Below, piece after piece: positions 2,102 through 35,647 of a stretch of 64,000 bases of DNA. The DNA is from an uncultured Rickettsiales bacterium (GTDB lineage: Bacteria; Pseudomonadota; Alphaproteobacteria; Rs-D84): positions 85,124 to 149,123 of the forward strand of contig URBZ01000001.1 in NCBI GenBank assembly GCA_900546225.1, in the 5' to 3' direction. Every line of letters starts with the position of its first letter. Position 1 is the stretch's first letter. Both the position numbers and the translations under genes were made by a program. The notes under the pieces are model-generated. The model did not search any database, was not told the origin of the DNA, and was given only the letters and a program-made list of their open reading frames with translations.

Positions 2102-2893
2102 TTATTTATCTGCAAATTGTGACACGATTGCGCCCAACGACGACATTCCGCCACCACTGCTGAGTCCGCTGACCGTTTCCATAATTGAACTGGTGTTTGT
2201 TTTCTGACCCAATCCACCAACCGTGCTGGTTAAAAATTCACCCCACATCGCACGCTTCTTCGCCGACAGACGCGCGTTGCTGCAATTTTCAATTTTCGAC
2301 ATCAACTTTATCGCCATTGTCGCTTCTGGCTTGGTATAATCACTCTCGGAAAAATCAATCAAATTAAATATATCATAAATATCAGAAACCGTCTTTTTAT
2401 TCTTGCACGCCTGTGACCCGTCGTCGCAATACGATGCAACCGATGCCTTTGGAAACTGATACCAGACCATATTTTTATCATTGGCCGAACCGAAATTATC
2501 ATAGCAAACCAAATCGCCATCATCACCATTCAGTGTTGTACGCACCGCCATTTGATAACCCGTCCCCCCTGGGCACGGCATACGCCCCAGTGCGCGTTTG
2601 GCATCATCAGATGTCATTTCGCCAACCTTGGCCCACTCTTTCATAGTGTTGTTCACGAACGTGATTTCTCGGGACTCGGGGATGCATTCTTGGGTTAATT
2701 CACGTTGTTTTTCATTCAGTCGTTGAACCCCTCTGACCAAACCCAACACGGTTGGCACTAAACTGGCCCCTGTGTCCTGAACAGATGCGGCCTGTGTTGC
2801 AACGGGCGCGGCCTTTTTAATAGTAACCGCAGCCGGCGCGGACGACACCGCACAGGAAATCATACACATAAAAATCAGCAGTTTTTTATTCAT
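2102..2893 (-). CDS. hypothetical secreted protein
   Basis: N-terminal signal peptide MNKKLLIFMCMISCAVSSAPAA. No recognisable domain. Confidence 0.55.
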   Translation of the reverse strand: MNKKLLIFMCMISCAVSSAPAAVTIKKAAPVATQAASVQDTGASLVPTVLGLVRGVQRLNEKQRELTQECIPESREITFVNNTMKEWAKVGEMTSDDAKRALGRMPCPGGTGYQMAVRTTLNGDDGDLVCYDNFGSANDKNMVWYQFPKASVASYCDDGSQACKNKKTVSDIYDIFNLIDFSESDYTKPEATMAIKLMSKIENCSNARLSAKKRAMWGEFLTSTVGGLGQKTNTSSIMETVSGLSSGGGMSSLGAIVSQFADK

Positions 2894-2943
2894 CTCTCGT
2901 GCCTGTATTATAACATAAAAAAATTATTGAATAAATATAAAAA

Positions 2944-3459
2944 TTGCTTTTTGTGTTCGGGCGCGCTAAACTGGACACCGTGCAAGGCGATAGACGTAGT
3001 TTTATTATATTTACTAAACACAGACGATTACAGCGTCTGTGGCAGTTTTTCTTTACCGGTTGGGGTCTGGTAATGGTGGCGGCGTTGGTCGCGGGTTCAC
3101 TGTTTACCAAGCAATTATTGTGGACGCCCATCACCGCAATCAATATGACCGACATCGTCAGCAATCAATTCAAAATGTCAAACGCGGTATTCGCCGGCAC
3201 GGACACAAATGGCGAACCGTTCAAGATTCGCGCCGCATCCGGCCGCCAAGAATACGGTAAACCCGACATTATATTCTTGGAATCCGTATCCGGCACGGTC
3301 GTCCGCAAGAGTGGCGACACCAAAATAACCGATAATATTCGCGCCCAAACGGGAAAATACAATCGACGCAACAAGACCGTTACACTGATGGGCAATGTCC
3401 GCATTGATTCCAGCAACGGCGACAAAATTTTAACAGACGAATTGGTGGTAAAATTATGA
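2944..3459 (+). CDS. lptC: LptC/LptA-like (OstA fold) LPS export protein
   Basis: Small protein with an N-terminal TM segment. Overlaps downstream lptB by 4 nt (ATGA) in the typical lptC/A-lptB arrangement. Confidence 0.55.
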   Translation: MLFVFGRAKLDTVQGDRRSFIIFTKHRRLQRLWQFFFTGWGLVMVAALVAGSLFTKQLLWTPITAINMTDIVSNQFKMSNAVFAGTDTNGEPFKIRAASGRQEYGKPDIIFLESVSGTVVRKSGDTKITDNIRAQTGKYNRRNKTVTLMGNVRIDSSNGDKILTDELVVKL

Positions 3460-4184
3460 AACAATCCGTATTACGCATTGAACACTTGTCTAAATCATAC
3501 GGCAAACGTATGGTTATTCGCGATATTTCCATGATTGCACGTCAGGGCGAATCGGTTGGGTTACTGGGCCCAAATGGCGCGGGCAAAACCACGGCATTTT
3601 ACTGCATCACGGGCCAGTTGGCGGCAACCGGTGGCCAGATTTTCCTGAACTCTCAGGACATAACACACCTGCCGTTTTATCAACGGGCACGCCTGCACAT
3701 CGGTTACCTGCCCCAGGAAAACAGCGTATTTCGCGGGCTGACCGTCGAACAAAATATTCTGTCTATTTTAGAGGTGGTCGAACCAGACCGTAAAAAACGT
3801 CGCCAGAAATTGGACGCACTGTTGGACGAATTTTCCATATCGTCCCTGCGTCACAGTCCGGCAACAGCCCTGTCGGGTGGTGAACGTCGCCGCGTTGAAA
3901 TCGCGCGTGCATTGGCAAATGACCCTAAATTTATTCTGCTGGACGAACCATTCGCCGGCATTGACCCAATCGCGGTGAATGAAATCCGTACATTGGTATC
4001 CCAACTGAAAAACCGCGGTCTGGGCGTGATTATTACCGACCACAACGTGCGCGAAACACTGGGCATTACCGACCGCAGTTATGTGTTGCACGACGGAAAA
4101 ATCCTGAAACACGGTACAACCGACGAAATTATTCAGGACGAAATGGTTAAAAAGGTATATCTGGGCGAAGATTTTACTATGTAA
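3456..4184 (+). CDS. lptB: LPS export ABC transporter ATP-binding protein LptB
   Basis: Walker A GPNGAGKTT, ABC signature LSGGERRRVEIARAL, Walker B ILLDEP. Confidence 0.9.
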   Translation: MKQSVLRIEHLSKSYGKRMVIRDISMIARQGESVGLLGPNGAGKTTAFYCITGQLAATGGQIFLNSQDITHLPFYQRARLHIGYLPQENSVFRGLTVEQNILSILEVVEPDRKKRRQKLDALLDEFSISSLRHSPATALSGGERRRVEIARALANDPKFILLDEPFAGIDPIAVNEIRTLVSQLKNRGLGVIITDHNVRETLGITDRSYVLHDGKILKHGTTDEIIQDEMVKKVYLGEDFTM

Positions 4185-5970: not shown

Positions 5971-8900
5971 TTACCCCTCGCCGTTTTCTTTGGTTTGATT
6001 TGCCGCGTTCATCATTGCGAAATGCGCGATGTACTTTTTCAGTTCACTCTTGTACCGATTGTTTTCCTTGGCAAATTCAACCAATCTGTCAAAGTTCGGA
6101 TTTGCCGCGCGCGCCGCGCCGAAACGACTCTCGGTCTTCAAGAAATCTTCCAATGGCGTTGGATTATCAATATTTGAATCCAGCGTCAATGGATTGCGTC
6201 CCGCATCAATCAAGCGTGGGTCAAAACGATACAGTGGCCATGCACCGGTCTGAACCAGTTGCGTTTGGTGCTGAACCCCATTTTGCAATGCAAATCCATG
6301 CGCAATACATGGTGCATACGCCAGAATCACCGATGGGCCGGGGAAACTTTCGGCCTCGCGGAATGCGCGAATCGCCTGAACAGGATTCGCACCCAACGCG
6401 ATTTGCGCAACGTACGCGCCCGACATCATCGCCATCATACCCAAATCTTTCTTGGCATGTTCCTTGCCACCAATGGCAAATTTCATACTGGCGGCAAATG
6501 GGGTGGATTTAGATTGCTGGCCACCGGTATTCGAATACCCTTCGGTGTCCAGAACCAAAACATTCACATTTTCACCACTGTGCAAAATATGATCCAACCC
6601 ACCATATCCGATATCATATGCCCAACCATCACCGCCGACAATCCATACAGATTTGGTCACCATTTCGCCCAACAAACTTTCCGCCAATCGTGCACGCGGG
6701 CCATCTGTTTTCGCCAATTTTTTACGCAACATTTCTGCGTTTGCACGTTGACGCACAGGGTCTGTTTCTGCAAACATTGCGTCAACATTTGGAATATTCA
6801 ATTCAAACAGCAGGCCACGCAACGTGTCACGCTTTTGATTCAGTGCCAAACGCATACCCAAACCGTATTCCGCATTGTCTTCGAACAATGAATTAGACCA
6901 CGCCGGCCCGCGACCATTCGCATCACGTGTCCATGGCGTAGTTGGCAAATTCGCACCATAAATCGACGAACAACCCGTTGCATTCGCAACAACCATACGG
7001 TCACCAAACAGGTGCGCCATCATTTTCACATACGGCGTTTCGCCACAGCCCGCACATGCCCCTGGAAATTCAAAATAATGCGGCAACAGTTCGACATGCT
7101 TTGGAATATTCAAATTCAATTTTTCACGCGGGACATCTGGCAATTTCACAACCGCATCAAACGCGCGTTGGTTTTCCGCCGCAACATCGCGTGCCGGTTT
7201 CATCGCCAATGCCGCCACAGGACAGTTTTTAACGCACACACCACACCCTGTGCAGTCCGCCGCCGAAATCGCCAACGTGTAATACATGTCCGGCCCCAGT
7301 TCTGGCGTCTTCATCGGCACAACAATAACGCCCGCCGCACGCGCCGCGTCAACCTGTGCGGCACTCAGTGCCTTGATACGAATCGCCGCATGTGGGCACA
7401 GCATTGAACATTTGCCACACTGAATACATTTTTCCAAATCGCACGTTGCAACCCGATCAGACACCGCGCGTTTTTCATACTTTGACGTTCCAACCGGATA
7501 TTGACCCGCGCCAAATTCACCGCCCACGCGGAAACGCGATACAGGAATCGCATCACCACGCTGCGCCGCCATTTCACCCAACGTGCCCGCGATTTCCGCC
7601 GGCGCGTCCGCCGTCATTGCCGGCACAAAATCAGGTGCGAAATTCGACACAGACGACGGCAATACGTACTGGTGCAAATACTCGGCTGCCTTGTCCACCG
7701 CGGCCCAGTTTGCCTGAACAATTTCCATACCTTTTTTCTTGTACGTTTTTTCAATCGCAACCTTGGCCGATTTTGCCGCAACCGCCGGATCAATAATCTG
7801 GGTCAGGTTAAAGAAGTTCAACATGATAAACGTATTGATACGATTACCCAATCCCAATTCCGCCGCCGCGCCATTCGCGTCCAAGAAATACACATTCGCA
7901 CGCAGACGCAACAAATGTTCCTGTGTTTCACGTGGCAGATTTGCGAACGCAACATCGGGCGACATCGACGTATTTATCATAACCGTACCGCCCGCACGCA
8001 ACCCACGGAACACATCAAAGCGTTGCGCAATCATAAAGTTTGAAACACTGATAAAATCGGCAACCTCTATCAAATACTGACTTTTAATTGGCGCATCAGA
8101 AAAACGAACATGCGACGCGGTCAGCCCGCCCGATTTTTTCGAATCATATACCGCATACGACTGTGGATACAGGTCTGAATTTTCACCAACAATTTTTACA
8201 ATATTTTTAACCGCACCAACCGTACCATCAGAACCAATACCGTACAGAATCGCGGTCTTGAAATTTTCCGCCTGAACCGCGAACGCGGGGTCTGTTTTCA
8301 GGGACAATCCCGACAAATCATCATCAATACCAACCGTGAAATTGTGATGCAATGTGTCGCGCATCAGATTTTCATACACGGCCTTGACATCACGGGGCTT
8401 AAATTCTTTTGACCCCAAACCATACCGGCCACCAAATACCGCCGCCGCATCGCCAACAACGGTTTTAACGTCTTGGTACAACGGTTCACCAATCGCCCCA
8501 GGTTCTTTTGTTCTGTCCAGAACTGCAATACGTTTAACAGATTTCGGCAACGCCGCACGGAACGCATCGGTCGGGAACGGACGATACAAATGCACCTTGA
8601 TCAATCCCAAACCACGTGGCAAGAATGGCAAAGTTTCCTCTATCGTTTCGCACGCACTGCCCATTGCGACAATGACATTTTCGGCATTTGGGTCACCAAC
8701 ATAGTCCACCAAATGATACGCGCGCCCCGTCAGTTTTGCGAACTTGTCCATGCATTCCTGAACAATTTCTGGCGTCGCCGCGTACAGTGGATTGGCGGCC
8801 TCGCGTCCCTGAAAGTACACATCAGGATTTTGCGCCGTACCGCGAATCGTTGGTGCATCGGGTGTCATACCACGTGCACGATTTTCCAAAACCAAATCGT

Positions 8901-9483: not shown

Positions 9484-9641
9484 GATACCTTTCCCTTGTG
9501 TACGTTTTTTGTTTTATTTCTGGCGAAATCATACCGCGATTTTTAATCCAAGGCAAGATTATACTTACATTTAACATTGACAAAATTCATATTTTGTATT
9601 ACACTACGTCCCCCAATATGAAGTTCAGAGAGGTATCGATT

Positions 9642-10142
9642 ATGAAAAACGGAAATATTATAGAGATTTGCCCAGGGTCGTTTCTGGACACAGCATTTGC
9701 CGGCGTTACGCCCGCAAAAACGGCAAACCCACTTGCACGCCATGACAACTTTGTCCGTGGCACTGACATTTATATTTTGGATTCATTTGCCAGCAAAACA
9801 AAAATGAAAAATGCCGCATTTGTACGCCGTATCAAGGACGCCATCGCCGATGCACGCGACGTTTTAAGTGGCGGCTTTATGGACGTAATTCCAACAAATT
9901 GGAAAATTGCACGCGATTGGAATCGCCCACATATTGACGTCTATGTAAATTGCCCAGACGCCACACTGACCGACAATGCGCGCGCCGCATTGGCCGAATT
10001 GGCACGCGCGGCCGCCGCGGGCGTAAAAATCACAGTACACGTCACCGGCAATCAAGCCAGCGCGATTGCACGTGCATTATTGGCAATGGAAAGATTCAGT
10101 GCCAACCGCACATTTCACAACACAACAACAAAACAGCGGTAA
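9642..10142 (+). CDS. hypothetical protein
   Basis: ORF with GAGG RBS before the ATG at 9642. Terminator at 10152-10185. Confidence 0.45.
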   Translation: MKNGNIIEICPGSFLDTAFAGVTPAKTANPLARHDNFVRGTDIYILDSFASKTKMKNAAFVRRIKDAIADARDVLSGGFMDVIPTNWKIARDWNRPHIDVYVNCPDATLTDNARAALAELARAAAAGVKITVHVTGNQASAIARALLAMERFSANRTFHNTTTKQR

Positions 10143-10151
10143 TAACCAGTG

Positions 10152-10185
10152 GCAATAAAAAAAACGGGGCAACGCCCCGTTTTTT
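10152..10185. terminator. bidirectional intrinsic terminator
   Basis: aaaaaaacggggcaacgccccgttttttatttc. Related to the terminators at 59321 and 61300. Confidence 0.7.
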
Positions 10186-11593
10186 ATTTCTTTTTATTTT
10201 CTAATTTTTTCAGTGTATCTGTCGCATCCGTGGGCTTTTCGTCCGATATACCGTCACACGTTGCCGCACGTGTTTTTAACTTTGACATCGCACGCACCAT
10301 GTCCATACCACGTTGCAACTGGTAATCTTGGGCATCTTTTTCTTCGTCAGACAATTCGACTTCTTCGTCATCATCGGACTTCTTGTCCGCTTTCTTTTTT
10401 GCGTTTTCATTCTTTAATGCGTTTTTGAAAGAGGCCTCTGAATATAAACTTTCGCGACGTTCAATGGTTTCAATCTTGCTCTGCAAAACCTCTACGTCTG
10501 GGGTAATCCCCTCGTTCTGAATAGACCGCCCACTGGGGGTATAATAACGTGCAATAGTAATATGAATCGCCGTGCCATCACCCAACGGTTTTTGCTGTTG
10601 CACACTGCCCTTGCCAAAACTTTGCGACCCCATAACCAACGCACGGCCATTGTCCTGTAATGCGCCCGCAACAATTTCAGACGCCGATGCCGAACCATGA
10701 TTTATCAGCACAACAATTGGTTTGCCGCCCGTCATATCGCCCGCTTTGGCCATGGCACGTTCAATATCCGCAGCATCTTTACCACGCGTTGACACAATTT
10801 CGCCACCATCCAGAACCGCATCTGCAATATCAATCGCCGCCGTCAGATACCCCCCAGGGTTATTGCGCACATCAATTACATAACCAATAACATTCTTTTT
10901 CTCCAACTTTTTAATCGCATTGCGAAACTCCTTGGCCGTGGTTGCGCCGAAATCAGAAATACGCACATAACCAATTTTTTCCTTTGAATTTTCGTCCATA
11001 TCCGCAATCGTCTTGTCGTCAAACTTGACGGACTTTACCTTGATAATTGCGCGTTTCAATGTAACATCGCGTGCGTCTTTGCCATCGGACAAGATGGTCA
11101 ACTTAACCTTTGTCCCCGGGCGACCTTTCATCTTTTTTACCGCCTGATTCAATGTCATATCAAAGACCATTTCGCCATCAATACTGGTAATATAGTCGCC
11201 GGCCTTGATACCTGCCTTGGCCGCAGGCGTATCGTCAATCGGCGAAATCACGCGAATTGCGCCACGGTCGCTGGTGACCTGAATGCCCAAACCACCAAAT
11301 TCACCATAAGATTTATCGTTAAATTCTTTCAAATCGTCCGCCGACAGATACGACGAATGTGGGTCAAGTGCGCCCAACATACCGTTCATTGCCGCTTCCA
11401 GCATTTTCTTTTCATCGGCCTCTTCGACAAAACTGTCGCGCGCGACATCAAACACCAGCGCAAATTTTTGCAACTGTTCATAAATCTGTTCATCGGTCAG
11501 GTGCACAACCGGTTCTTCTTTCTTTGCCTTGCCGGCGGCGATGGCCGTCATTGGCACAAATAACGCAACCAAGACCAAAAATTTCTTTAACAT
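10184..11593 (-). CDS. ctpA: C-terminal processing peptidase (S41, tail-specific protease) with PDZ domain
   Basis: PDZ region (GIKAGDYITSIDGE) and S41 catalytic region (VVLINHGSASASEIVAGALQD). Signal peptide from MLKKFLVLV. Confidence 0.9.
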   Translation of the reverse strand: MLKKFLVLVALFVPMTAIAAGKAKKEEPVVHLTDEQIYEQLQKFALVFDVARDSFVEEADEKKMLEAAMNGMLGALDPHSSYLSADDLKEFNDKSYGEFGGLGIQVTSDRGAIRVISPIDDTPAAKAGIKAGDYITSIDGEMVFDMTLNQAVKKMKGRPGTKVKLTILSDGKDARDVTLKRAIIKVKSVKFDDKTIADMDENSKEKIGYVRISDFGATTAKEFRNAIKKLEKKNVIGYVIDVRNNPGGYLTAAIDIADAVLDGGEIVSTRGKDAADIERAMAKAGDMTGGKPIVVLINHGSASASEIVAGALQDNGRALVMGSQSFGKGSVQQQKPLGDGTAIHITIARYYTPSGRSIQNEGITPDVEVLQSKIETIERRESLYSEASFKNALKNENAKKKADKKSDDDEEVELSDEEKDAQDYQLQRGMDMVRAMSKLKTRAATCDGISDEKPTDATDTLKKLENKKK

Positions 11594-11715
11594 TTTCGCT
11601 TTTCCCCTTGCCTTGTGATACAACAAAAACACCATATACCAAAAAAACCGCACTCGCAACACGATTTTTTGACTTTTTATACAGATTTTACCAATTTCAT
11701 CAACGCTACAATCAC

Positions 11716-11749
11716 TTGACAAAATAATTTTCTGTGCTATATTACCCGT
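11716..11749 (+). promoter_or_regulatory. sigma70-like promoter (TTGACA-16nt-TATATT) upstream of the Fic-like gene
   Basis: Near-consensus -35 and -10 hexamers read directly: ttgacaaaataattttctgtgctatatt. Confidence 0.5.
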
Positions 11750-11763
11750 ACATGGGTGACCAC

Positions 11764-12489
11764 ATGACAAAGACGCAAAATTATAAAATTCGTATCGAAG
11801 AAAACCGACAACAGATAACCAACATGTTATCTGGGGCGGACACGCACAAGCGGTTGAATAACATCAACTGGCTGCGTCACGAATTGTCATACACCGAACC
11901 GCGCACATTGTTTTACGTGCCGTCACGGGAACAGTTGCCCTATCTGGATTACAACAGTATGAAAAATCTGGGGACGGCATATGATTACATCATTGACAAC
12001 CCCGACACAATTATTGACATTCCTGAAATTTGCAAGTTGCACAGTATGTTATGCGCCGGCACACCGATTCAGGGCGGTCTGTTTCGCAACACGTCCAAGG
12101 TTTTGGAACTGTATGTCAACGGCAATCGCATTCATGCGCCCGAATCCACCGAGATTCCATCAAAACTGAACGAAATCGTGTACAAGTTCAATAATCAAAA
12201 CGAATGTACATTGATGCGCGCATTTAGCGCACACTATGACCTGATTATGTTACAGCCATTTGATGATTTTAACAAACGCACTGCGCGCCTGATTATGAAT
12301 TGGCTGCTGATTCAAGGCGGCTATCGCCCAATCGTGTTTAACCAGCGTACCGACAAACAGAAATACAAAGACGCCATCACCGCCAAGGCCGCCGGTGACA
12401 CGAAAAAATATACTCAATATATGTATTCATGCCTGTTGCGTACACAGAATGAAATAATCAACTTGTTAAAGAAATCGCGGGTGCTGTGA
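11764..12489 (+). CDS. Fic/Doc (Fido) family protein with degenerate catalytic motif
   Basis: Fic-fold region (GGLFRN...ESTEIPSKLNEIV). The motif position reads QPFDDFNKRTAR instead of HPFx(D/E)GNGRxxR. Confidence 0.7.
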   Translation: MTKTQNYKIRIEENRQQITNMLSGADTHKRLNNINWLRHELSYTEPRTLFYVPSREQLPYLDYNSMKNLGTAYDYIIDNPDTIIDIPEICKLHSMLCAGTPIQGGLFRNTSKVLELYVNGNRIHAPESTEIPSKLNEIVYKFNNQNECTLMRAFSAHYDLIMLQPFDDFNKRTARLIMNWLLIQGGYRPIVFNQRTDKQKYKDAITAKAAGDTKKYTQYMYSCLLRTQNEIINLLKKSRVL

Positions 12490-13473: not shown

Positions 13474-14991
13474 TTATTTCCAGTCATCGGGGATGTCGTT
13501 ATAATCTGACAGTTCTGTGGCATCGGTGTACATACCCCCAACATTGTCGGACGTTGCTGATGGGAACACATTATACAGGTATGTCCCATCTGGATTCCGT
13601 GCCGACGGCCCTGTCAGCCCACTGCAACCGCTAAATGTGTCAACGAACATGTAATCGGCTGGCTTGCCGGACAAGTCACCAAAGAAACCAAGTGGAATTT
13701 CGCCAGTCAGGTTTTCGCACCCTGCAAATGTCCCTTGAAACATACCGTCGGTTGGTGCCCCCTTTATTCCCGTAAACAGTCCTTCTGGTAAACTGGTCAG
13801 CTTTGTGTGGTTATAAAACGTCTGGTCAAAGTTTGGTTGGCTGCCATCTGCTAGGGTTGGGAATATTGCGCCCAAACTGCCTGATATTTTTTCCGTATGT
13901 TCGGCATAATCAAAACGAATTGCAGCATAACCATCAGAGTACGCGGTTGCTTTACCGCTGATTTTAATGGTGTATGTATCCTGATTGTAATAACCGTAAT
14001 CGTGCGTTATGTATTTTTCATCTGTATCGGTTTTGGTTATCGTTTCTATAATACCTCCATCGCCCCAGTCCACATAGAATTTTCCAGCGGCAGAGATGAT
14101 AATAGCAAACGAAGAGGTGTCACTTGTGGTAGTTATGGTAAATGTGGAATCTGTCACCTCTCCGTCCGGTGGGATGGGGCCAGTGTACGTACATGCCTTG
14201 CCGCCCCACGTTGATGGGATTGACGCGTTATCTTCCAAACACGTGCCGGTGTACATATCACCGACCTGTAATGATGTTGCCGACGAGAATGCATTATACA
14301 AATACGTGCCATCTGGGCTCCGTGCTGATTTACCGGTCAGACCACTGCACCCATTAAATGTATGGGTAAACATATTGTTTTGTAACGTACCAGATAAATT
14401 ACCAAATAACCCCAACGGTATCTCGCCCGTCAGACCGGAACAGCCCCTGAATGTGCCGCCAAACATACTGTATGCAGGCGCGCCAGACAGTTCGCCAAAC
14501 AATCCCGATGGAATTTCGCCTGTCAGACCACTGCATCCATTAAATGTGGCGTCAAACATATATGTAGCGGGTGCGCCAGTTATATTTCCAAACAGTCCAG
14601 ACGGTATTGAACCCGTCAAGCCGGAACAGCCCCTGAAAGTACCGCCAAACATGCTGGGCGCTGGTGCGCCAGACAGTTCGCCAAACAATCCCGATGGAAT
14701 TTCGCCCGTCAGACCAGTGCACCCATTAAACGTCCCGTCAAACATATATGCAGCAGGTGCGCCAGATATATTTCCAAACAGTCCTGACGGTATTGACCCC
14801 GTCAGACCGGAACTGCCCCTGAATGTGCTGGCAAACATATAGACCGCCGGCGCGCCAGAAATTCCTGAAAATAGTTTTTCTGGGATGCTGCCCGTCAGAT
14901 TGGTGCAGCCATAAAACGTACTACGAAAAATCGGACGACGTCCATTTACCGTTGGGAATATTTCACCCAAGCTGCCACTGATTTTTGCCAA
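13474..14991 (-). pseudogene. C-terminal fragment of a frameshifted PKD-like/LRR-like modular surface protein (continues 15032..16867)
   Basis: No signal peptide. Begins mid-repeat. The -1 frame upstream reads IGGRATGYASSYNESGAAISFKNNKNLAKISGSLGE, continuous with the upstream ORF. Confidence 0.6.
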
Positions 14992-15031: not shown

Positions 15032-16867
15032 TTATAAGACGATGCGTACCCCGTTGCACGCCCACCAATGCCGCACGGCGTACGCGCCCGCCGTGGTGTA
15101 TGTATGACTGATGGTTTGATTAGTTGTATCGGTCTTTTCTATTTTCTGAAATGCACTGCCGTCGCCCCAGTTGACATAAAATTTCCCTGCCGCAGAAATA
15201 TTGAAACTGAAACTGCTGGTGTCACTGGTGGTGGTCAACTCAAACGGGTATTCCGGTTCTGGTTCAACATATGTGCATGTCGCCCCGCCCCACGTTGATG
15301 GTATCGATGCATTATCTTCCAAACACGTGCCAGTGTACATATGCCCCGTGTATGAGTTTGTGGTTGATGGGTACACTTCATACAAATATGTACCATCTGG
15401 GTTACGTGCGGACTTTCCATACAAGCCCTTGCACCCATAAAATGTATGATAAAACATTGTGGTGGCACGTTCACCCGACAAATTACCAAACAGCCCCAGT
15501 GGAATTTCCCCTGTCAGACCACTGCACCCCTCAAACGCCCATGCGTACATACTGCTGGCGGCTTCGCCCGAAATATTACCGAACAAGTTTGATGGGATTT
15601 CACCCGTCAAACCACTGCACCCATAGAACACATAGCGGAACATACTGCCCGCGGGCTCACCACGCAGATTGCCAAATAATCCAGATGGAATACTGCCCGT
15701 CAGACCACTGCAACCATAAAATACGCTGTTAAACATGCTGTTAGCCGGCGCACCCGACAGATTGCCAAACAGTCCAGATGGGATACCTGTCAGACCTTTG
15801 CAGTTGTAAAATGTGCTGTCGAACATGTCTTTGGCCGGCGCACCATACAGATTACCAAATAACCCAGATGGAATACTGCCCGTCAGACCACTGCAATCAT
15901 AAAATAAGCTTTTGAACATACCGATGGCTGGGGCACCAGATATACCAGCGAACAGATTTTCTGGGATGCTGCCCGTCAACCCAGTGCAACCGTTAAAGGT
16001 GTTGCTGAACATATAGCTCGCTGGCGTACCTTTTATTCCCGCAAACAAATTCTCTGGAATAGAGCCGGTTAATCTGCTGCACCCCAAAAACGTGCTGCTG
16101 AACATATTACTGACCGGTGCACCAGATATACCAGCGAACAGATTTTCTGGAATACTGCCCGTCAAAGTAGATCTGCCATAAAACGCCCTGTAAAACCTCG
16201 GTTGACTGCCATTCGCCAATGTTGGGAATATTGCACCCAAACTGCCCGAAATTCCGGTTAAATGTGAAGTTGATTCGAAACTGATTGCCGCGGTTGTGGC
16301 ACTGGTTGAATATTTCGTTGTCAGACCGCCGATTTTAATATCGTACGCGCCCGCTGTGGTGTATGTATGACTAATGTTTCGAGTGTTTGTATCGGTCTTG
16401 GTTATTGTTTCTACCGCGGTGCCATCGCCCCAGTCAACCCAAAATTCGCCCGCAGCAGAAATCTTGAAACTGAAACTGGTTGTATCACTGCTGGTGGTAG
16501 CAGTGAACGGGAATGTGCGCGGCTTTTTAATCAGGTTTTTAATTGCGTTGTCCACCGTTCGTTTGTTCACGGCGTATGACGTGGCATACGATGTGCCCGA
16601 ATATACCTTGGACGAACCGCCAATCTTTTTATTGGCAATATCAATCGCCGCCATCAGGTATTTCATATTCGCCGCAACCGATTTGTTCGTCAATGCCGAA
16701 TTATACCCCACAGAAACATTCCACTTTGCCAAAATCGCATCATGAATATATTTGACATTCACAACCGGCGACATTGTTGTGGGTTCTGCCACAGCAGCAG
16801 GCGCAACCGTCACATTCAATGCGACGATCATACACAGTAAAATTTTGAATACGCGGTGCAAACCCAT
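15032..16867 (-). CDS. secreted modular protein: PKD-like beta-sandwich domains plus roughly 33-aa LRR-like repeats (N-terminal part of a frameshifted gene)
   Basis: Signal peptide. WGDG..HTY..AG.Y motif occurs twice. Repeats of the form GxIPxxLFGxxSGAPAxxMFxxTFxGCSGLTG. Confidence 0.65.
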   Translation of the reverse strand: MGLHRVFKILLCMIVALNVTVAPAAVAEPTTMSPVVNVKYIHDAILAKWNVSVGYNSALTNKSVAANMKYLMAAIDIANKKIGGSSKVYSGTSYATSYAVNKRTVDNAIKNLIKKPRTFPFTATTSSDTTSFSFKISAAGEFWVDWGDGTAVETITKTDTNTRNISHTYTTAGAYDIKIGGLTTKYSTSATTAAISFESTSHLTGISGSLGAIFPTLANGSQPRFYRAFYGRSTLTGSIPENLFAGISGAPVSNMFSSTFLGCSRLTGSIPENLFAGIKGTPASYMFSNTFNGCTGLTGSIPENLFAGISGAPAIGMFKSLFYDCSGLTGSIPSGLFGNLYGAPAKDMFDSTFYNCKGLTGIPSGLFGNLSGAPANSMFNSVFYGCSGLTGSIPSGLFGNLRGEPAGSMFRYVFYGCSGLTGEIPSNLFGNISGEAASSMYAWAFEGCSGLTGEIPLGLFGNLSGERATTMFYHTFYGCKGLYGKSARNPDGTYLYEVYPSTTNSYTGHMYTGTCLEDNASIPSTWGGATCTYVEPEPEYPFELTTTSDTSSFSFNISAAGKFYVNWGDGSAFQKIEKTDTTNQTISHTYTTAGAYAVRHWWACNGVRIVL

Positions 16868-24352: not shown

Positions 24353-27300
24353 ATGGCAACAAAACAGTACCGCAAAAATACCAAGAATCCAAAGCGTAAA
24401 TTGTTTTCCATACGCAAAATTGCGCTGGTCGCGTGCGCGATTGCAATTATCGCGGGCGCATTTGCATTTATCGCATTGCGTCGCGGTGACAATGCGGCAA
24501 CAAAAATGCACACGACATTTAACACCCCAACCGCGGCAACATTTACCGATACAAACAATGTAATGTTCACGTCTGACAATATTCCCGATGTGAACAATGC
24601 CCGCACGTTGGGCCGCATTCAGCCATTGGTTATTTCTTATAATTGGACGTCCGGCCCATATAATCAGGCCGTGCGCCCCGACGCAACAAACAATGACATC
24701 ACAGCCGGCACAAAAATCAGTCCATTTGTTCGTGGCACATGGACACTGCGCGGTGGTGGCGATGAATTGGCGTTCACACCCGACACCGATTGGCCCGCCG
24801 ACACGCGTTTCACTGTACGCGTTGCGGACAATCTGGTAAATTCAGACGTTGCGATTGACGATAAAACGATTTCTTTCACAACCCCGCGCATCACCGCCAC
24901 GGTGGACAGTTTCAACCTGTACCCTGCACCAAGTGCAAAGAAATCCGTAATTGGCGTTGCCGTTATATCATTTAATTACCCGATTATTACAACGGAATTT
25001 AACGATAAATTGACCGTCAAACTGGACGGGGCTAAATTGGACTTTACGGTAAAGTTTGATAAATTCCGTCGCACGGCCATAATCACAACCGCGCCGGTAC
25101 AAATCACCAATACCGACCAAATTATTCGCCTGAAATTAAACCGCGTTTCGCCCGCCGCTGGCAATGGCGCAACCCAGAAATTGACCGCGCACACAACCGT
25201 TGCCGCCGCTGATAACATATTCAAAGTATCTGAAATCACAACCACCGCGGCCGACGACAAAAACGGCAATGCGCAACAGTTGGTTCTGGTGAATATGACC
25301 GCCACCGCCGCGTCAAACACCGATTGGGGTAAATATGTTGAAATTTACCTGTTGCCTGAATACAAAACCGATGATGAAAAGTCAGACGAAACCCCACACC
25401 AATGGGCGGACGACGAAATCACCCCTGATGTGATTGCGCGCGCAAAAAAAATCCAAACAAAACTTGTCCCATTTGTAAATCCGACGGGCGTGTATCAATA
25501 CGCATTTTCATATGACGTGTCCGCTGCGAACAGATTTATTTTCGTGCGCGTTGCGTCCGGCTTTGAATCTGCGTCTGGCTTTTTTGTTAAAAATGGCGCG
25601 TCACGCGTTTTGTCCGTCGCATACCCTGTGCGCACGGTAAAAATCGCTGGCAGTGGCGCATTATTATCACTGGCGGGCGATAAAAAATTGGGCATTATGG
25701 CACGTGGTGGCGCAACCGCCGCATACGTGAATTTATCAAAGGTTAAATCATCTGAAATCAATCACTTGATTTCCCAGACATATAATATCTTTGCCGAAAA
25801 CATAGAATTTAAGGGCTGGTCATTTGGCGTTGACGATATGGCGGTTGTGTTCCGCAAAACAATTCCTTTTTCTGACCCGTCTATGACCAAAACCAATTAT
25901 GCGTCGATTGATTTGGGCGCATATCTGGACAGAACAGGTGTCGACAAAACCGGTATATTTGTAATTCAGGTCGCCCCCGACGCCACCGCCGCGCAGTACA
26001 GTGACCGTCGTCTGATTTTACTGACCAATTTAGGAATTATACGCAAGGAAAATCAAAACAATTCGTCCACTTTGTTTGTGGTAAATCTGTCTGATGGCAC
26101 GCCCGCCGCCGACACGGAAATAAACGTACTGGGACGCAATGGCAACGCCGTATGGGCGGGACGTACCGATGATGACGGCCACGCCGATATTCCTGAACTG
26201 TCATGGAACGAATATCGCGATGCGCGCGAACCCGTTGCGATTGTTGCGCGCCGTGGTGACGATGTTTCATTTATTCCATACAACGCAACCGCACCAATGG
26301 TTGATTATTCTAAATTTGATGTCGATGGCGAACATTATTATGGCGCAACACCACTGAACGCATTTGTCTTTACAGATCGCGGCATTTACCGCGCGGGCGA
26401 AGATATGGTTGCCGCCGGCATCGTAAAGAATAAATCGTTCAAGGCACTGGCTGGGATTCCTGTACGTGCCGAAATCACCGACCCACGCGGGCGCGACGCA
26501 TTGACAAAAACATTCACACTGGCGGGCGACGGAATGTTCGACATTAAATATACAATTCCCGCAACCGCCGCAACTGGCGAATGGCAGGTTCGCCTGTATT
26601 CATTGGACAATCGCGGGCGCATTGACACGTCACTGGGGGTGGCAACATTCCGCGTTGCGGACTTTGTCCCAGACAATATGAAAATCACCACCATCATCGC
26701 CGGTGGCGACACAGACGGTTGGATTGGGATTGATGGTATACGCGCGAATGTGTCCCTGCGTAATTTATTCGGCACCGCGGCAACGGACAAGCGTATTACA
26801 GCGTCTGCAACACTGACACCAACGAATTTTACATTTGATGCATTTCCTGATTACATATTCACACCAAACTTTATTTCGGGCACAGGTCTGGCCGATGGGA
26901 CGGCGCGCGCGTCCCAGACATTCACGGCAAATATGCCCGACGCGCACACCGATGAAAACGGCGCAGCAACAATTTCTATCAATTTTGACGATGTAATCCC
27001 AGATGGCACATATATGCTGAAACTGACAACCGCAGGATTTGAATCAGCATCGGGGCGCAGTGTTCGCACAACCACAACCGCACGCGTATCAAATGCAAAA
27101 TATCTGGTCGGATATCACGCCGATGGTGATTTGAAATACATCGCACGCGGGGCGTCGCGCAATGTCAAATTGGTTGCGGTTGACCACACGGGCGCGGTTG
27201 CGACGGCGGACAACCTGACCATTCGGACGGTACACCGCGAAAACCTGACCAGTTTGGTCAAGGATTACAGTGGATACTATAAATATCAAACCGTCACCCG

Positions 27301-30082
27301 CGACAAAGTCATCAGTCAGGGCGCATTGGACATCGCGCCAGACGGCAAAACAATCAAACTGGACACCGCAAACGCTGGCACATATTTTGTCCAGATTCTG
27401 GATTCAGCGGAACGCATTTTGGCAAACATAGAATACTTTGTTGCCGGCAATGAAAACAGCGAACTGAAATCAGACACCAACGCCGAACTGAAAATCAAAT
27501 TGTCGTCAAACGCGTTTGCCGCGGGCGACAAAATCGATGTCAGCATTACCGCACCATACACCGGTGCGGGCCTGATTACGATTGAACGCGACCGCGTGTA
27601 TGCTTACAAATGGTTCAACGCCAACACCACAACATCGGTTCAGCAAATCACCCTGCCCGATGGATTCGAAGGAACGGGTTACATCAACGTGTCATTTGTG
27701 CGCAATATCACCAGCCGTGATATATTCACAACACCATACGCGTACGCCGTTGCACCATTTGCGGTTAAAAACGATACCCGCAAAATTGGCGTTAAACTGA
27801 CCACGCCGGACGTCGTGCATGACCATAAATTACCCATTAAATATGAATCAGATCGTGATGCGCGCCTGATGATATTCGCCATAAATACCGGCATTTTACA
27901 GGTTGCAAAATACGACCTGCCCCGTCCACTGGCGTACTTCTTCAAAAAGGCCGCCTTACAGGTTTCCACGTACCAAACACTGTCGCTGTTGTTGCCAGAA
28001 TACAAAATTCTGCGTGAATTTGCAAAAACCGGCGGTGGTGATTTCGAACCAGATATCGACGCCGGCATGACACTCAGCAACCCGTTTGGCCGTCGCACAT
28101 TGCCACCGGTTGCGTTCTATTCGGGGATTATTGATACCAAGGCCGGCAAATCGGGCGAAATCACATTTGATTTGCCAGAATATTTTAACGGCGCGGTGCG
28201 CGTATTTGCGGTTGCCGCAAACAACACCGCCGTGGGCAGTGCGGACGCCAGCGTTCGCGTCCAATCACCGGTTATGATTACACTGTCTGCCCCACTGATG
28301 GCGGCCCCAAACGACACGTTCGACATTGGTGCGGTTATATCAAATCAGGTCACGCACAGTGGCGCAAACGCGACCGCCGACATTTCGCTGTCGACATCGG
28401 ACGGATTGACACCAGCGGCAACAACTGGGAAAATCGCCGTTCCTGAAAATAACGAAAATGTTTTCACGACATCTGTTCGTGTTGGCGACGTGTTGGGCAA
28501 TGCCGACATTAAATTAAAAGCAACAATCAACGGTGCGGACGATGCATCTGGGGTTGCAAATGCAACGGCGGCCCTGTCCGTGCGTCCAATAACAACGTTT
28601 GGAACACGCGTGCACAGTGGCACAATAAATGCCCACACCGCAAAAATCCGTGGATTCCACATTGATATGTATCCGGAATTTTCCGCACGCACACTGTACG
28701 TGTCACCACGCGCAACCGTGCTGGCACGCCCATTGGTTCAGTATCTGGCGCACTATGAATTTCCATGCACAGAACAACTGGTATCGCGCGCATTGCCATA
28801 TGTCGTTGCACCAAACGATGACACGTTGGGAACGAATTTTGATGAATCCAGCGCGAAAATTGCCGATACAATCCGCCAGTTGCAATCGCGTCAGAATATA
28901 AACGGTGCATTTGAATTGTGGGCAACAACCGATAGTTTCCCAATACCTGCGACCGCCACAAACGTCCAGACAACCGCATATGTCGCCCAGTTCTTGACAC
29001 TGGCGCGCGACGCGGGGTTCAATGTACCACAGGATATGTTGGGTCGCGCGATTGGATTCTTGCGTGATTTTGCCGGTGCGCCGATTGAAAGCGACGATGA
29101 TGCTGCGGCGGTTGCGCACGCAATCTTTGTCATAACGCAAAATGATTACATCACAACAAATTACATCAATTTGTTCCAAGAATATACGGACAAAAACATC
29201 AAGAATTGGCAGCGCACGATTTCTGGCGCATACGTCGCCGCCGCATATAAAATGATGAAGCAAGATGATGCGGCGGGCAAACTGATTGCGCAATACCGCA
29301 CCACATCGCCAAAGTTCGAATACGTATCGATGTATGACAATAATGTTGCAAATGACGCAATGTATAGCTTTATCAACCGTCGGTATTTTGATGCCGCGGC
29401 GGACATGCCCGACAGTGTCATAAAATACGTTGCGGGTGGCGATTATTCGTCATACACATCGGCAATGGCAACATTGGCATTGATTGGCGATGCCGCCACA
29501 GCCGCGCCCGCGGTCACAATTTCGGCAAATGATGTGACCATCACGGGCACGACATCGGGCGACACACAGGTTTTTGACATTCCGGCGGACGCCACCACGA
29601 TTGATATCAAGTGCGAAAAATGTGACCGCACGAACGGCCTGTATTACGCATTGGTTCAGACCGGTTATCCACGCGTGGTCACCGAATCCAGCAACGGTAT
29701 TTCCGTATCGCGTGAATATTACAATGAAAACGGTGAACGCATCACGTCCGCAAACATCGGTGACAGAATCACGGTTCGCATCTTTGCCCGCGCACGTGGT
29801 GGCGACGTAATCCCAAGCGTTGCAATCACCGATTTACTGCCGGCGGGATTTTCTGTTGAGGCCGCGGTCACGGGCGACCAGAACTTTGCCCAGATTCGCG
29901 AAGATCGTGTTGTGATATTCACCGACCTGACGCGTGCATCGGCAACATTTGAATATACCGCCGACGTCACCGCCGCGGGCACATTCAGTGTTCCACCAAT
30001 TCACGCCGAATCCATGTATAATCCATCGGTAAATGCAACCGGTGTGATCGGCACATTCACGGTTTCAAATGGTGAAAAATAA
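24353..30082 (+). CDS. yfhM: bacterial alpha-2-macroglobulin (YfhM/ECAM-like) with intact thioester
   Basis: 1909 aa. N-terminal membrane anchor. Thioester motif CTEQ at 28766-28777. Followed by overlapping pbpC. Confidence 0.85.
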   Translation: MATKQYRKNTKNPKRKLFSIRKIALVACAIAIIAGAFAFIALRRGDNAATKMHTTFNTPTAATFTDTNNVMFTSDNIPDVNNARTLGRIQPLVISYNWTSGPYNQAVRPDATNNDITAGTKISPFVRGTWTLRGGGDELAFTPDTDWPADTRFTVRVADNLVNSDVAIDDKTISFTTPRITATVDSFNLYPAPSAKKSVIGVAVISFNYPIITTEFNDKLTVKLDGAKLDFTVKFDKFRRTAIITTAPVQITNTDQIIRLKLNRVSPAAGNGATQKLTAHTTVAAADNIFKVSEITTTAADDKNGNAQQLVLVNMTATAASNTDWGKYVEIYLLPEYKTDDEKSDETPHQWADDEITPDVIARAKKIQTKLVPFVNPTGVYQYAFSYDVSAANRFIFVRVASGFESASGFFVKNGASRVLSVAYPVRTVKIAGSGALLSLAGDKKLGIMARGGATAAYVNLSKVKSSEINHLISQTYNIFAENIEFKGWSFGVDDMAVVFRKTIPFSDPSMTKTNYASIDLGAYLDRTGVDKTGIFVIQVAPDATAAQYSDRRLILLTNLGIIRKENQNNSSTLFVVNLSDGTPAADTEINVLGRNGNAVWAGRTDDDGHADIPELSWNEYRDAREPVAIVARRGDDVSFIPYNATAPMVDYSKFDVDGEHYYGATPLNAFVFTDRGIYRAGEDMVAAGIVKNKSFKALAGIPVRAEITDPRGRDALTKTFTLAGDGMFDIKYTIPATAATGEWQVRLYSLDNRGRIDTSLGVATFRVADFVPDNMKITTIIAGGDTDGWIGIDGIRANVSLRNLFGTAATDKRITASATLTPTNFTFDAFPDYIFTPNFISGTGLADGTARASQTFTANMPDAHTDENGAATISINFDDVIPDGTYMLKLTTAGFESASGRSVRTTTTARVSNAKYLVGYHADGDLKYIARGASRNVKLVAVDHTGAVATADNLTIRTVHRENLTSLVKDYSGYYKYQTVTRDKVISQGALDIAPDGKTIKLDTANAGTYFVQILDSAERILANIEYFVAGNENSELKSDTNAELKIKLSSNAFAAGDKIDVSITAPYTGAGLITIERDRVYAYKWFNANTTTSVQQITLPDGFEGTGYINVSFVRNITSRDIFTTPYAYAVAPFAVKNDTRKIGVKLTTPDVVHDHKLPIKYESDRDARLMIFAINTGILQVAKYDLPRPLAYFFKKAALQVSTYQTLSLLLPEYKILREFAKTGGGDFEPDIDAGMTLSNPFGRRTLPPVAFYSGIIDTKAGKSGEITFDLPEYFNGAVRVFAVAANNTAVGSADASVRVQSPVMITLSAPLMAAPNDTFDIGAVISNQVTHSGANATADISLSTSDGLTPAATTGKIAVPENNENVFTTSVRVGDVLGNADIKLKATINGADDASGVANATAALSVRPITTFGTRVHSGTINAHTAKIRGFHIDMYPEFSARTLYVSPRATVLARPLVQYLAHYEFPCTEQLVSRALPYVVAPNDDTLGTNFDESSAKIADTIRQLQSRQNINGAFELWATTDSFPIPATATNVQTTAYVAQFLTLARDAGFNVPQDMLGRAIGFLRDFAGAPIESDDDAAAVAHAIFVITQNDYITTNYINLFQEYTDKNIKNWQRTISGAYVAAAYKMMKQDDAAGKLIAQYRTTSPKFEYVSMYDNNVANDAMYSFINRRYFDAAADMPDSVIKYVAGGDYSSYTSAMATLALIGDAATAAPAVTISANDVTITGTTSGDTQVFDIPADATTIDIKCEKCDRTNGLYYALVQTGYPRVVTESSNGISVSREYYNENGERITSANIGDRITVRIFARARGGDVIPSVAITDLLPAGFSVEAAVTGDQNFAQIREDRVVIFTDLTRASATFEYTADVTAAGTFSVPPIHAESMYNPSVNATGVIGTFTVSNGEK

Positions 30083-34022: not shown

Positions 34023-35552
34023 TCAGAACTTTGCATTGACACCAACGCGAATACCCATTGATTTATAGAACGATTTAACCTCGCTCTTGACACTGCATGT
34101 CCAACCTGGGCAACTTTCTTTTAATGCCATAATCGAACGTGCGGCGGCACTGCCGGCCAGCATTTCTTCGTCCGACGAGAAACCTGTACCATAATTTACC
34201 TCGTACCCATTGACGGTATACGTACCACCGTTTTTGATACGTGACAATTCGGTTTCGTAATAATTGGCATTCAGATACGTTTTCGCGTCCGCATCACTGA
34301 CACTGTAATAATCATATGTCAGCCCCAGTGTCAAGAATACAGTATCCGTCAATGCTGTCAACCAATTTGCGCCCAATCCCAAATGATACGCACTGCCCAT
34401 GCTGGCCTTGTCTTCGACACTCTTTGGGTGTGCCCAGTCATAACGGTACGGCTGGTCACCGGTTGATGTGTACCCCGGCAACCCCAGTTCAAAACGACCA
34501 TTGACGGCATTTTTATTGTTGATTTGGTAATCCATATCCATCGCCAAATATGGGCCTGACCATTCAACCTCGTACGAATGGCTGACCGATGGTTGTGAAT
34601 AATAGAATGTCCCCGCGGTATTCACCAACGTTGCCCCCGCAGGCACTTGGATATAGTTATATGGATTATCACGTGTTGGCACAGAACTGATATTGCCGAT
34701 TGGGAAAATCAGAACCGGATCACATTGCGTTTCGCCATTGATATTGAAACAAGTATAAGAATCCACCGCCAAACCGTGGTTATTCTTGGTTTCCAATTTA
34801 TATTTCAAATAGCGATACCCAATCGATGGTGTGAATTTCACCGACCCCAGTTGAAAGAAATCAGTCAACCCAAATCCGGCGTTAAACCCGTACATATTGC
34901 CGCCATCGCTTTTACCCACAGACAGCGCATGTCCGTCCTGAGTTCCCGTGATTTCTTCGCCATCATCGTATTGACCGTTGCCGTTTGCATCGACAAAGAA
35001 GATATCGGAAATATACCCGCCATTGGTGATATCGTCGTCGACCATGGTGTTTTCACCGGACTGCATTCCATACTTGAATCCGGCATCAATTTGCATCTTG
35101 GTCTTGCCGGCATTAAATGCATAACCACCACGAACGTCCAGAACATTCCAGCCAACATTGTCATAGTGCAAAATCGATTTGGATTCTTTCATTTCGAATT
35201 GCCATTGGGCAACCTCGTGCGAGATACCGGCATCCAGCCAAAATCCCTGCTTTTTTGTGCTGCTGGTGGCAACCTGTGATGCGTTTTGCGACTGACCGCG
35301 TGCCACGGTTGTTTGTGTTGTACGCGTACCAACCGTTGGACGCGACGTAGAATACGACGCATACGACGAACCCGCAGTATTGTAATTTCTGGTCTGGGTC
35401 GTATTGTTATAACGTGACGCATACGATTGCGTGGAATAGCGCGTCTGGGGCGACTGATAGTTGCCGGTGTAATAAGTTCCGGCGGCATTTGCCGCAACAG
35501 GCACAGCGGCCACAATCGCCGCGCGCAACAAAAACGATGGAAACTTTGCCAT
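34023..35552 (-). CDS. outer-membrane beta-barrel protein/porin candidate with N-terminal Y/S/T/Q/N-rich low-complexity region
   Basis: Signal peptide (start at MAKFPSF). C-terminal ...GVNAKF. About 80-aa low-complexity region after the signal. Confidence 0.55.
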   Translation of the reverse strand: MAKFPSFLLRAAIVAAVPVAANAAGTYYTGNYQSPQTRYSTQSYASRYNNTTQTRNYNTAGSSYASYSTSRPTVGTRTTQTTVARGQSQNASQVATSSTKKQGFWLDAGISHEVAQWQFEMKESKSILHYDNVGWNVLDVRGGYAFNAGKTKMQIDAGFKYGMQSGENTMVDDDITNGGYISDIFFVDANGNGQYDDGEEITGTQDGHALSVGKSDGGNMYGFNAGFGLTDFFQLGSVKFTPSIGYRYLKYKLETKNNHGLAVDSYTCFNINGETQCDPVLIFPIGNISSVPTRDNPYNYIQVPAGATLVNTAGTFYYSQPSVSHSYEVEWSGPYLAMDMDYQINNKNAVNGRFELGLPGYTSTGDQPYRYDWAHPKSVEDKASMGSAYHLGLGANWLTALTDTVFLTLGLTYDYYSVSDADAKTYLNANYYETELSRIKNGGTYTVNGYEVNYGTGFSSDEEMLAGSAAARSIMALKESCPGWTCSVKSEVKSFYKSMGIRVGVNAKF

Positions 35553-35647
35553 ATAAAAATCCTTACCTTTATTACTTTTACGCATATAATATCACAAAAA
35601 CGGTTGAAAAACAAACCACTTGTTGATAAGAATATGGTTGTTTTTCG

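Follow-up and report, generated by a model that had tools for sequence, protein, structure and literature searches.

The subject of this analysis is a protein of the Fic/Fido superfamily in which Gln takes the place of the catalytic His of the active-site motif. Its gene lies in a 64,000-nucleotide stretch of DNA (the window) from an uncultured Rickettsiales bacterium of the alphaproteobacterial lineage Rs-D84 (GenBank assembly GCA_900546225.1, contig URBZ01000001.1, positions 85,124 to 149,123 of the forward strand). It is flanked by a divergently transcribed ctpA gene and by a gene for an APH(2'')-like phosphotransferase (hereafter the kinase), whose ATG overlaps the Fic stop codon in the sequence TGATG (Table 1). 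We refer to this protein and its homologs as Q-NKR Fic. The start given in the table is common to the homologs, which begin MTKT; an alternative GTG start at 11734 is disfavored by the position of a promoter-like site, which matches the consensus at 11 of 12 positions, is the best such match in the 170-bp divergent intergenic region between ctpA and the Fic gene (11594-11763), and ends 20 nucleotides 5' of the ATG.

Table 1. Features of the Q-NKR Fic locus, with nucleotide positions in the window and residue numbers of the Fic protein
Feature	Residues	Position	Strand	Description
ctpA (S41 C-terminal processing protease, PDZ)		10184..11593	-	Pfam Peptidase_S41 6e-61 + PDZ
Promoter-like site		11716..11743	+	TTGACA, 16-nt spacer, TG-extended TATATT; consensus match alone
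Q-NKR Fic gene		11764..12489	+	Fic-fold protein, 241 aa; 217 homologs
Polar helix KRLNNxNWLRHE[IL]SYTEPRxLF	27-49	11842..11910	+	Continuous, highly conserved; AF2 helix 27-49
Beta-hairpin flap (target-docking element of Fic proteins)	113-124	12100..12135	+	AF2 strands 113-118, 121-124
Active-site motif QPFDDFNKRTAR	164-175	12253..12288	+	Q164, D168, F169, N170, K171, R172, R175
APH(2'')-like phosphotransferase, 306 aa		12489..13409	+	Pfam APH 5.7e-10, Choline_kinase 2.4e-7

Both profile and fold place the 241-residue protein in the Fic/Fido superfamily. It matches the Pfam Fic model PF02661 with an E-value of 5.4e-13 (50 bits against a gathering cut-off of 24), as the sequence-only reading had anticipated, and an AlphaFold2 (AF2) model built on 28 family members (pLDDT 90.8, pTM 0.89) adopts the Fido fold. 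In Foldseek searches of the PDB with this model, the best matches are FICD structures (TM 0.74-0.80), followed by BT_2513, Caenorhabditis elegans FIC-1, Coxiella Fic2, CdFic, SoFic, and IbpA; the top 50 matches are all Fic proteins, and Doc is absent from them. FICD is likewise the best PDB match by sequence and profile search (E 4e-19 with the family profile).

Catalysis by Fic enzymes relies on the motif His to deprotonate the target hydroxyl; Mg is bound by the Asp/Glu, and the phosphates are bound by the GNGR loop together with the final Arg. The corresponding segment of the window protein, QPFDDFNKRTAR, aligns column for column with HPFIDGNGRTSR of FICD, the differences being His to Gln, the first Gly to Phe, and the second Gly to Lys. 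Both phmmer and profile searches of the PDB place the motif exactly on IHPFIDGNGRTSR of FICD; in the longer FICD alignment recovered by the sequence and profile searches, LQPFDDFNKRTARLIMN is paired with IHPFIDGNGRTSRLLMN. An hhalign comparison with canonical class II relatives sets it on IHPFvDGNGRTaR (probability 99.9, E 1.3e-36). These alignments agree with the residues as they had first been read from the letters, namely, a His-to-Gln and a first Gly-to-Phe replacement with a Doc-like N-K-R and the terminal Arg kept. The alternative raised at that time, that a second Fic motif with an intact His lies elsewhere in the protein, is rejected: no such motif is present, and in the HMM, phmmer, and hhalign alignments alike it is the Q motif that falls on the canonical one. 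H157 was also considered as a stand-in catalytic His and rejected; the same His is invariant in the canonical relatives too.

The motif had been described as degenerated, a description that does not survive its near-invariance across the family. Within the family alignment, F166, N170, K171, R172, T173, and R175 are invariant, and Q164 and D168 are conserved in more than 90% of the sequences. Gln occupies the first position, as part of Q..NKR..R, in 168 of 173 family sequences and His in a single one, with four having no readable motif; the sixth position is more permissive, with Phe (139), Tyr (19), Cys (8), Leu (2), and Met (1). Among the nearest 120 representatives of 90%-identity clusters (50-100% identity), every full-length one except P0115 has Gln. 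Relatives are encoded in 182 species-level genomes, from which 80 loci were fetched, and all locus counts given below refer to these 80; the open reading frame (ORF) is intact in every one of them, with Gln in 79 and His in one. When HMMER was run in full over 1.84 billion representatives, 39 proteins scored below 1e-30, and those that span the motif region have Q..NKR..R throughout, apart from P0147, a 441-residue protein carrying two canonical His motifs. Beyond these 39, scores fall sharply, first to a sister group with QPFSDANKR and then to canonical HPFxDGNGR proteins. Even in sequences whose identity with the window protein drops to about 35%, position 164 holds either Gln or His and nothing else. 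The Fic gene of the window is under strong purifying selection, with a Nei-Gojobori dN/dS of 0.08-0.11 against its nearest orthologs. Such conservation marks Q-NKR Fic as a working protein with a nonstandard role rather than a decayed enzyme.

The Q-NKR proteins are monophyletic and fall within the class II Fic relatives in a neighbor-joining tree with canonical relatives as its root; this distance tree carries no support values, and polarity is read from it at the level of parsimony. Taken with the census, this suggests that the altered motif is ancient and was remodeled once and has been fixed since. The single His-bearing lineage, P0115, is nested deep in the Q-NKR clade, as sister to the Gln-bearing P0117 and P0118, and its cluster of 16 members reads HPF[D/E]DYNKRTSR in all 15 sequences read. 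Because of this nesting among Gln-bearing proteins, its His is, by parsimony, best viewed as a secondary Gln-to-His reversion rather than the ancestral state. The locus of this lineage (L059, positions 6001-6690, rumen lineage RUG11949) carries HPFDDYNKRTSR, which recreates a Doc-like motif, in a ctpA-Fic-envC arrangement that has no adjacent kinase, antitoxin, or inhibitory alpha-helix (alpha-inh). In another gut alphaproteobacterial metagenome-assembled genome, a sister-group Q-NKR Fic, P0196, with QPFSDANKRTAR (L081, positions 6001-6798), lies about 2 kb downstream of two ankyrin-repeat genes (2624-3963) and has no kinase neighbor; a gene for a 264-residue protein without a Pfam match overlaps its end.

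The replacement of His is part of a concerted and conserved remodeling of the active site, which also includes the Lys, a deletion of alpha-inh, and a longer flap. In MAFFT and hhalign alignments with the nearest His-bearing relatives, WLRHELSYT------------EPRTLF pairs with WLKVEFTYSSNAIEGNTLTRIETVEVL, a 12-residue deletion that takes out the class II alpha-inh motif SNAIEGNTLTxx, of the form (S/T)xxxE(G/N). The deletion sits in the Y43-E45 region, its exact boundary being ambiguous as T44 can be aligned to either flanking Thr. E45 of SYTEP was considered as a leftover inhibitory Glu and rejected, for the profile alignment equates it with a conserved Glu after alpha-inh, which is itself deleted. 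The two helices that flank the deletion form one helix (27-49) in the AF2 model, in which R30, N32, N35, H39, and E45 are invariant across the family alignment; the conserved polar N-terminal segment with R30, N32, N35, and H39 is a gain of the Q-NKR family. Relative to canonical class II Fic proteins, hhalign also places a 4-residue insertion in the flap hairpin. The second motif Gly is replaced by a Doc-type Lys in the family, and this goes hand in hand with the change of the His: the 150 best representatives from the 1.84 billion proteins include 87 with His and Gly, 47 with Gln and Lys, one with Gln and Gly, and none with His and Lys. Similarly, an upstream alpha-inh motif, [ST]xxxE[GN], is present in 56 of 69 His/Gly relatives as opposed to one of 38 Gln/Lys proteins; P0255, with QPFRDGNKR, retains it. 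The deletion and longer flap, the hairpin fold, and the kinase gene overlapping the Fic stop codon had all escaped the sequence-only reading.

The HxDxxxxN and DF catalytic motifs of the kinase are invariant, and a profile search of the PDB retrieves APH(2'')-Ia (E 1e-5); the single sequence yields weak matches to OspG only. Its AF2 model, predicted from database proteins, has a pLDDT of 88.7 and matches APH(2'') structures in Foldseek with a TM of 0.5-0.62. It is restricted to the clade and, with a dN/dS of 0.04-0.07, is likewise under strong purifying selection. The kinase adjoins the Fic gene in 63 of the 80 loci (51 downstream on the same strand, nine inverted, and three upstream) and is missing at 17, where the Fic motif is unchanged; comparison of the Fic motif between loci with and without the kinase revealed no differences. 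In one Candidatus Enterousia locus (L047, positions 6930-7154), only a kinase fragment of about 75 residues is left beside an intact Fic gene with the usual Q-NKR motif; the two genes can be uncoupled. The kinase is a frequent but dispensable neighbor that is probably linked to Fic in function; inherited synteny is inseparable here from selection for linkage because all the loci come from one order. Two loci from one genome (L035 and L067, both MAG63, CAJGDN01) each have a Fic-kinase pair, and the two Fic proteins show 59% and 45% identity with that of the window; these are either two paralogous/orthologous groups in one genome or the product of a mixed bin.

On the other side, ctpA (whose start, ATG 11593, is placed by a signal-peptide-like MLKKFLVLVALF) is found upstream of the Fic gene and on the opposite strand in 76 of the 80 loci. 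We regard this constant neighbor as genomic context and claim no functional link for it. The Fic gene lies in a variable island between ctpA and envC; where there are no insertions, the genes directly after it are an envC-like gene and tyrS, or else a putative RNase PH-like gene (a name given from sequence) comes next. No antitoxin-like small ORF was found beside the Fic gene in the window or in the related loci. Almost all of the 80 loci carry the label Candidatus Enterousia or uncultured Alphaproteobacteria and come from the guts of humans and animals, with one labeled Bacteroides fragilis; one lies on a closed chromosome of 958,618 bp, and one (L001, uncultured Rickettsiales bacterium UMGS1180) carries a gene with 100% identity to that of the window. 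Candidatus Enterousia belongs to the order Rs-D84; its genomes are reported to be metabolically reduced, at about 0.75-1.0 Mb, yet to have the usual coding density and no build-up of pseudogenes (PMC12306168).

Among characterized systems, the class II Fic proteins (human FICD/HYPE; bacterial CdFic, 4X2C; SoFic, 3EQX; BT_2513, 3CUC) are the closest counterparts. They share with the Q-NKR family a common helical core, the beta-hairpin flap, and the PF..D.N.R..R scaffold; small class II Fic proteins are also its closest His-bearing relatives, and at 235 residues CdFic is of similar size. The family differs from them in having Gln for His, Phe/Tyr/Cys and Lys for the two motif glycines, no alpha-inh, and four additional residues in the flap; it has the flap hairpin but departs from the canonical AMPylating motif HxFx(D/E)GNGRxxR. 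The second point of comparison is Doc, the Fic-fold kinase of EF-Tu from the Phd-Doc system of phage P1, which shares with Q-NKR Fic the N-K-R and the lack of a cis alpha-inh. Doc is always accompanied by the Phd antitoxin; no Phd-like neighbor of Q-NKR Fic was found in the window or the related loci, and the upstream gene is the divergent ctpA. Doc further keeps the catalytic His, has Ala/Gly where the Q-NKR family has Phe/Tyr/Cys, and is without the final Arg (motif classes of PMC4454073). Its six-helix core has no beta-hairpin (PMC4454073, PMC4177925), in contrast to Q-NKR Fic. Hence, of the "Fic/Doc" affinity initially proposed, the Fic half stands, in the form of a FICD-like protein with the hairpin, whereas membership in Doc is rejected by a TIGR01550 score of 18 bits against a cut-off of 38.65, by the hairpin, and by the position in the tree among class II Fic relatives. 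As the Q-NKR clade arises from those relatives, Lys171 looks convergent with the Lys of Doc.

A motif of this class was flagged in silico in 2015. Khater and Mohanty (Sci Rep 5:10804, PMC4454073) set apart, as "clade D2", 45 uncharacterized Fic/Doc proteins that are bacterial and single-domain and have the consensus Qx[F/Y]x[D/E][G/V]NKR; on grounds of conservation, they suggested that the members might not be inactive. Compared by published consensus and description, D2 and the Q-NKR family have in common the His-to-Gln change, the NKR, and a bacterial single-domain organization; however, the sixth position is Gly/Val in D2 and Phe/Tyr/Cys/Leu/Met in the Q-NKR family, and D2 was grouped with Doc, whereas the Q-NKR family nests among class II Fic relatives. 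P0255 fits the D2 consensus exactly and yet has alpha-inh. The alpha-inh deletion, the flap insertion, the fixed synteny, the kinase neighbor, and the Gln-to-His revertant are undescribed for D2, and no characterization of the motif class was found in the literature searched, the coverage of which was incomplete. Use of the Fic fold without catalysis, for at least one function, is known from BepC of Bartonella, whose FIC domain activates GEF-H1 noncatalytically though its noncanonical motif is conserved, and from AvrB of Pseudomonas, which is without the Fic motif (PMC7842960). BepC, however, keeps the His and is a secreted multidomain host effector, and AvrB has lost the whole motif; Q-NKR Fic, unlike either, is a single-domain protein with a conserved chromosomal position and all phosphate ligands retained.

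What has been kept in the Q-NKR family is the fold, the docking flap, the metal ligand D168, and the anion-hole residues N170, R172, and R175, all invariant or nearly so. As the phosphate and metal ligands other than the His are (nearly) invariant, a live ligand pocket is favored over a mere scaffold; as His is the only residue that ever replaces the Gln, position 164 still appears to suit a Fic-type His. On these comparative grounds, Q-NKR Fic is most likely a non-AMPylating, nontoxic protein whose pocket still takes up Mg-nucleotide, oriented as in Doc. The Lys at position 8 of the Doc motif is the determinant of inverted ATP binding, as a result of which phosphate and not AMP is transferred (PMC4177925). 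By analogy, Lys171 would force an inverted nucleotide, presenting the gamma-phosphate end rather than the alpha-phosphate to a target bound at the flap. The deletion of alpha-inh would leave the site of the second Arg and the gamma-phosphate unobstructed, and Gln164 could orient an attacking hydroxyl or water by hydrogen bonding with no general-base role. The outcome might be an enzyme that is constitutively open, carries out phosphoryl transfer (or phospho-hydrolysis) slowly, and has a conserved cellular protein as its target, properties that would suit a housekeeping regulator needing no antitoxin. We tentatively prefer, while stopping short of calling it probable, the reading that Q-NKR Fic is a functional protein under selection that has given up AMPylation, has kept a Mg-nucleotide/phosphate pocket of new design, and catalyzes transfer. 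Transfer is preferred because of the constraint on the whole site, the restriction of position 164 to Gln or His, and the gain of a kinase-type Lys.

Several considerations weigh against this preference. To our knowledge, the motif His is the catalytic base in every characterized Fic and Doc protein; Gln cannot deprotonate a hydroxyl, and any catalysis should therefore be weak. The aromatic residue in place of the first Gly of the anion loop may distort that loop, and the proposed geometry of Gln164, Lys171, and the N-terminal helix is a predicted one. That the gene is tolerated without an inhibitor would follow just as well from a completely inactive protein, and the same incompletely covered literature yielded no experimental work on any Q-NKR Fic.

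The strongest competitor, which we consider a serious possibility ranking just behind catalyzed transfer, takes up these points and holds Q-NKR Fic to be a noncatalytic pseudoenzyme, an adaptor that senses a nucleotide or phosphate, contacts a partner protein with the flap and the new N-terminal helix, and transfers nothing. The residue lost is the very one that is essential in all studied Fic and Doc enzymes, every genome tolerates the gene with neither a cis alpha-inh nor an antitoxin, and the conserved, family-specific polar helix (R30, N32, N35, H39, E45) looks like an interaction surface; BepC and AvrB provide precedents (PMC7842960). The near-invariance of the metal Asp and the phosphate ligands and the gain and subsequent fixation of the Doc-type Lys fit ligand binding but exceed the needs of a scaffold, and the occurrence of only Gln or His at position 164 down to about 35% identity is a further point against it. 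The two options offered by the sequence-only reading, a pseudoenzyme or altered chemistry, remain the right pair.

We consider it rather unlikely that the protein is a true enzyme with a chemistry new to the fold, in which an inverted or otherwise reoriented Mg-nucleoside triphosphate (Mg-NTP) would be attacked by a nucleophile that is independent of a general base (such as a phosphate, a carboxylate, or a Gln-positioned water), possibly on the product or substrate of the kinase. Were this true, it would amount to a two-gene Fic-kinase module conserved throughout an order of gut symbionts with reduced genomes. A more specific proposal, to which we give still less weight, is a two-enzyme pathway in which the APH-like kinase phosphorylates a small molecule and Fic then uses an NTP on that phosphate, to give, for example, NDP-X or an X-diphosphate; the His would be dispensable because a phosphate nucleophile needs no general base. 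The adjacency of the kinase, mostly just downstream on the same strand, with start/stop overlap in the window, and its persistence when the kinase is inverted or upstream are consistent with such a pathway, as are the small-molecule-kinase fold of the APH(2'') type with intact catalytic motifs and the strong purifying selection on both genes. However, Fic persists with an unchanged motif in the 17 kinase-less loci and beside the mere kinase fragment of L047, the protein-docking flap has been kept and lengthened, and the adjacency, being confined to one clade, may be inherited synteny. Moreover, we know of no Fic enzyme that acts on small-molecule acceptors.

A toxin-antitoxin or phage-defense role, with a toxic Fic held in check by a neighbor such as the kinase, is highly improbable. 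Q-NKR Fic is a small single-domain Fic protein and matches the PADLOC models PDC-S04 (E 3e-18) and SoFic (E 7e-12), but these matches reflect general Fic homology, and the kinase has no PADLOC match. Defense and toxin-antitoxin genes are typically patchy and mobile, whereas this gene is spread over 182 species genomes, with housekeeping flanks such as ctpA, envC, and tyrS and a fixed synteny with ctpA in 76 of the 80 loci, all from one order; furthermore, no small antitoxin ORF was found beside it in the window or the related loci, and the catalytic His is missing. Lastly, that the gene is a decaying relic on its way to loss, as the disappearance of the His and of two motif glycines in hosts with reduced genomes might suggest, is refuted by the intact ORFs at all 80 loci, the dN/dS of about 0.1, the unchanging motif, and the typical coding density reported for these lineages without pseudogene accumulation (PMC12306168).

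All Fic and Doc mechanisms worked out so far depend on the motif His, and the Q-NKR family presents a natural case without it. If it proves catalytic, the chemistry of the Fic fold would be extended; if not, it would be a clean bacterial example of a conserved chromosomal Fic pseudoenzyme that is not an effector. The nested lineage that has reverted from Gln to His is a built-in natural control for either outcome. The hosts are gut bacteria that depend on partners and of which little is understood; with only about 1 Mb of DNA, their genomes would not be expected to keep many dispensable genes.

The remainder of the window is ordinary chromosome, with genes for PFOR, ctpA, an envC-like M23 peptidase, tyrS, tsf, rpsB, polA, and cysS. 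Between PFOR and ctpA, an ORF of 214 codons without a Pfam match (9498-10142, + strand) shows clear conservation in L001-L005 alone, the closest relatives, while L061 and L062 give short, weak matches. Two adjacent, paralogous repeat-rich (surface) proteins (13474-14991 and 15032-16867, both - strand) are encoded in the variable island, between the kinase and envC, and consist of 93-bp (31-residue) tandem units with the pattern GLFGNxSGAPxxxMFxxTFxGCSGLTGxIPS; Pfam gives no match for the first and only weak PKD matches for the second, and homologs are found in just eight of the 80 related loci. Farther along, a bacterial alpha-2-macroglobulin of 1909 residues (24353-30082, + strand) is immediately followed and overlapped by a PBP1C-type transglycosylase/transpeptidase (30069-32465, + strand), a notable pair for so small a genome (about 1 Mb). 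Two further proteins hint at a host- or partner-associated lifestyle, namely, a member of the Protochlamydia outer-membrane protein (Pom) family (34023-35585, - strand) and one with a eukaryote-type Ephrin_rec_like domain (40224-41552, + strand).

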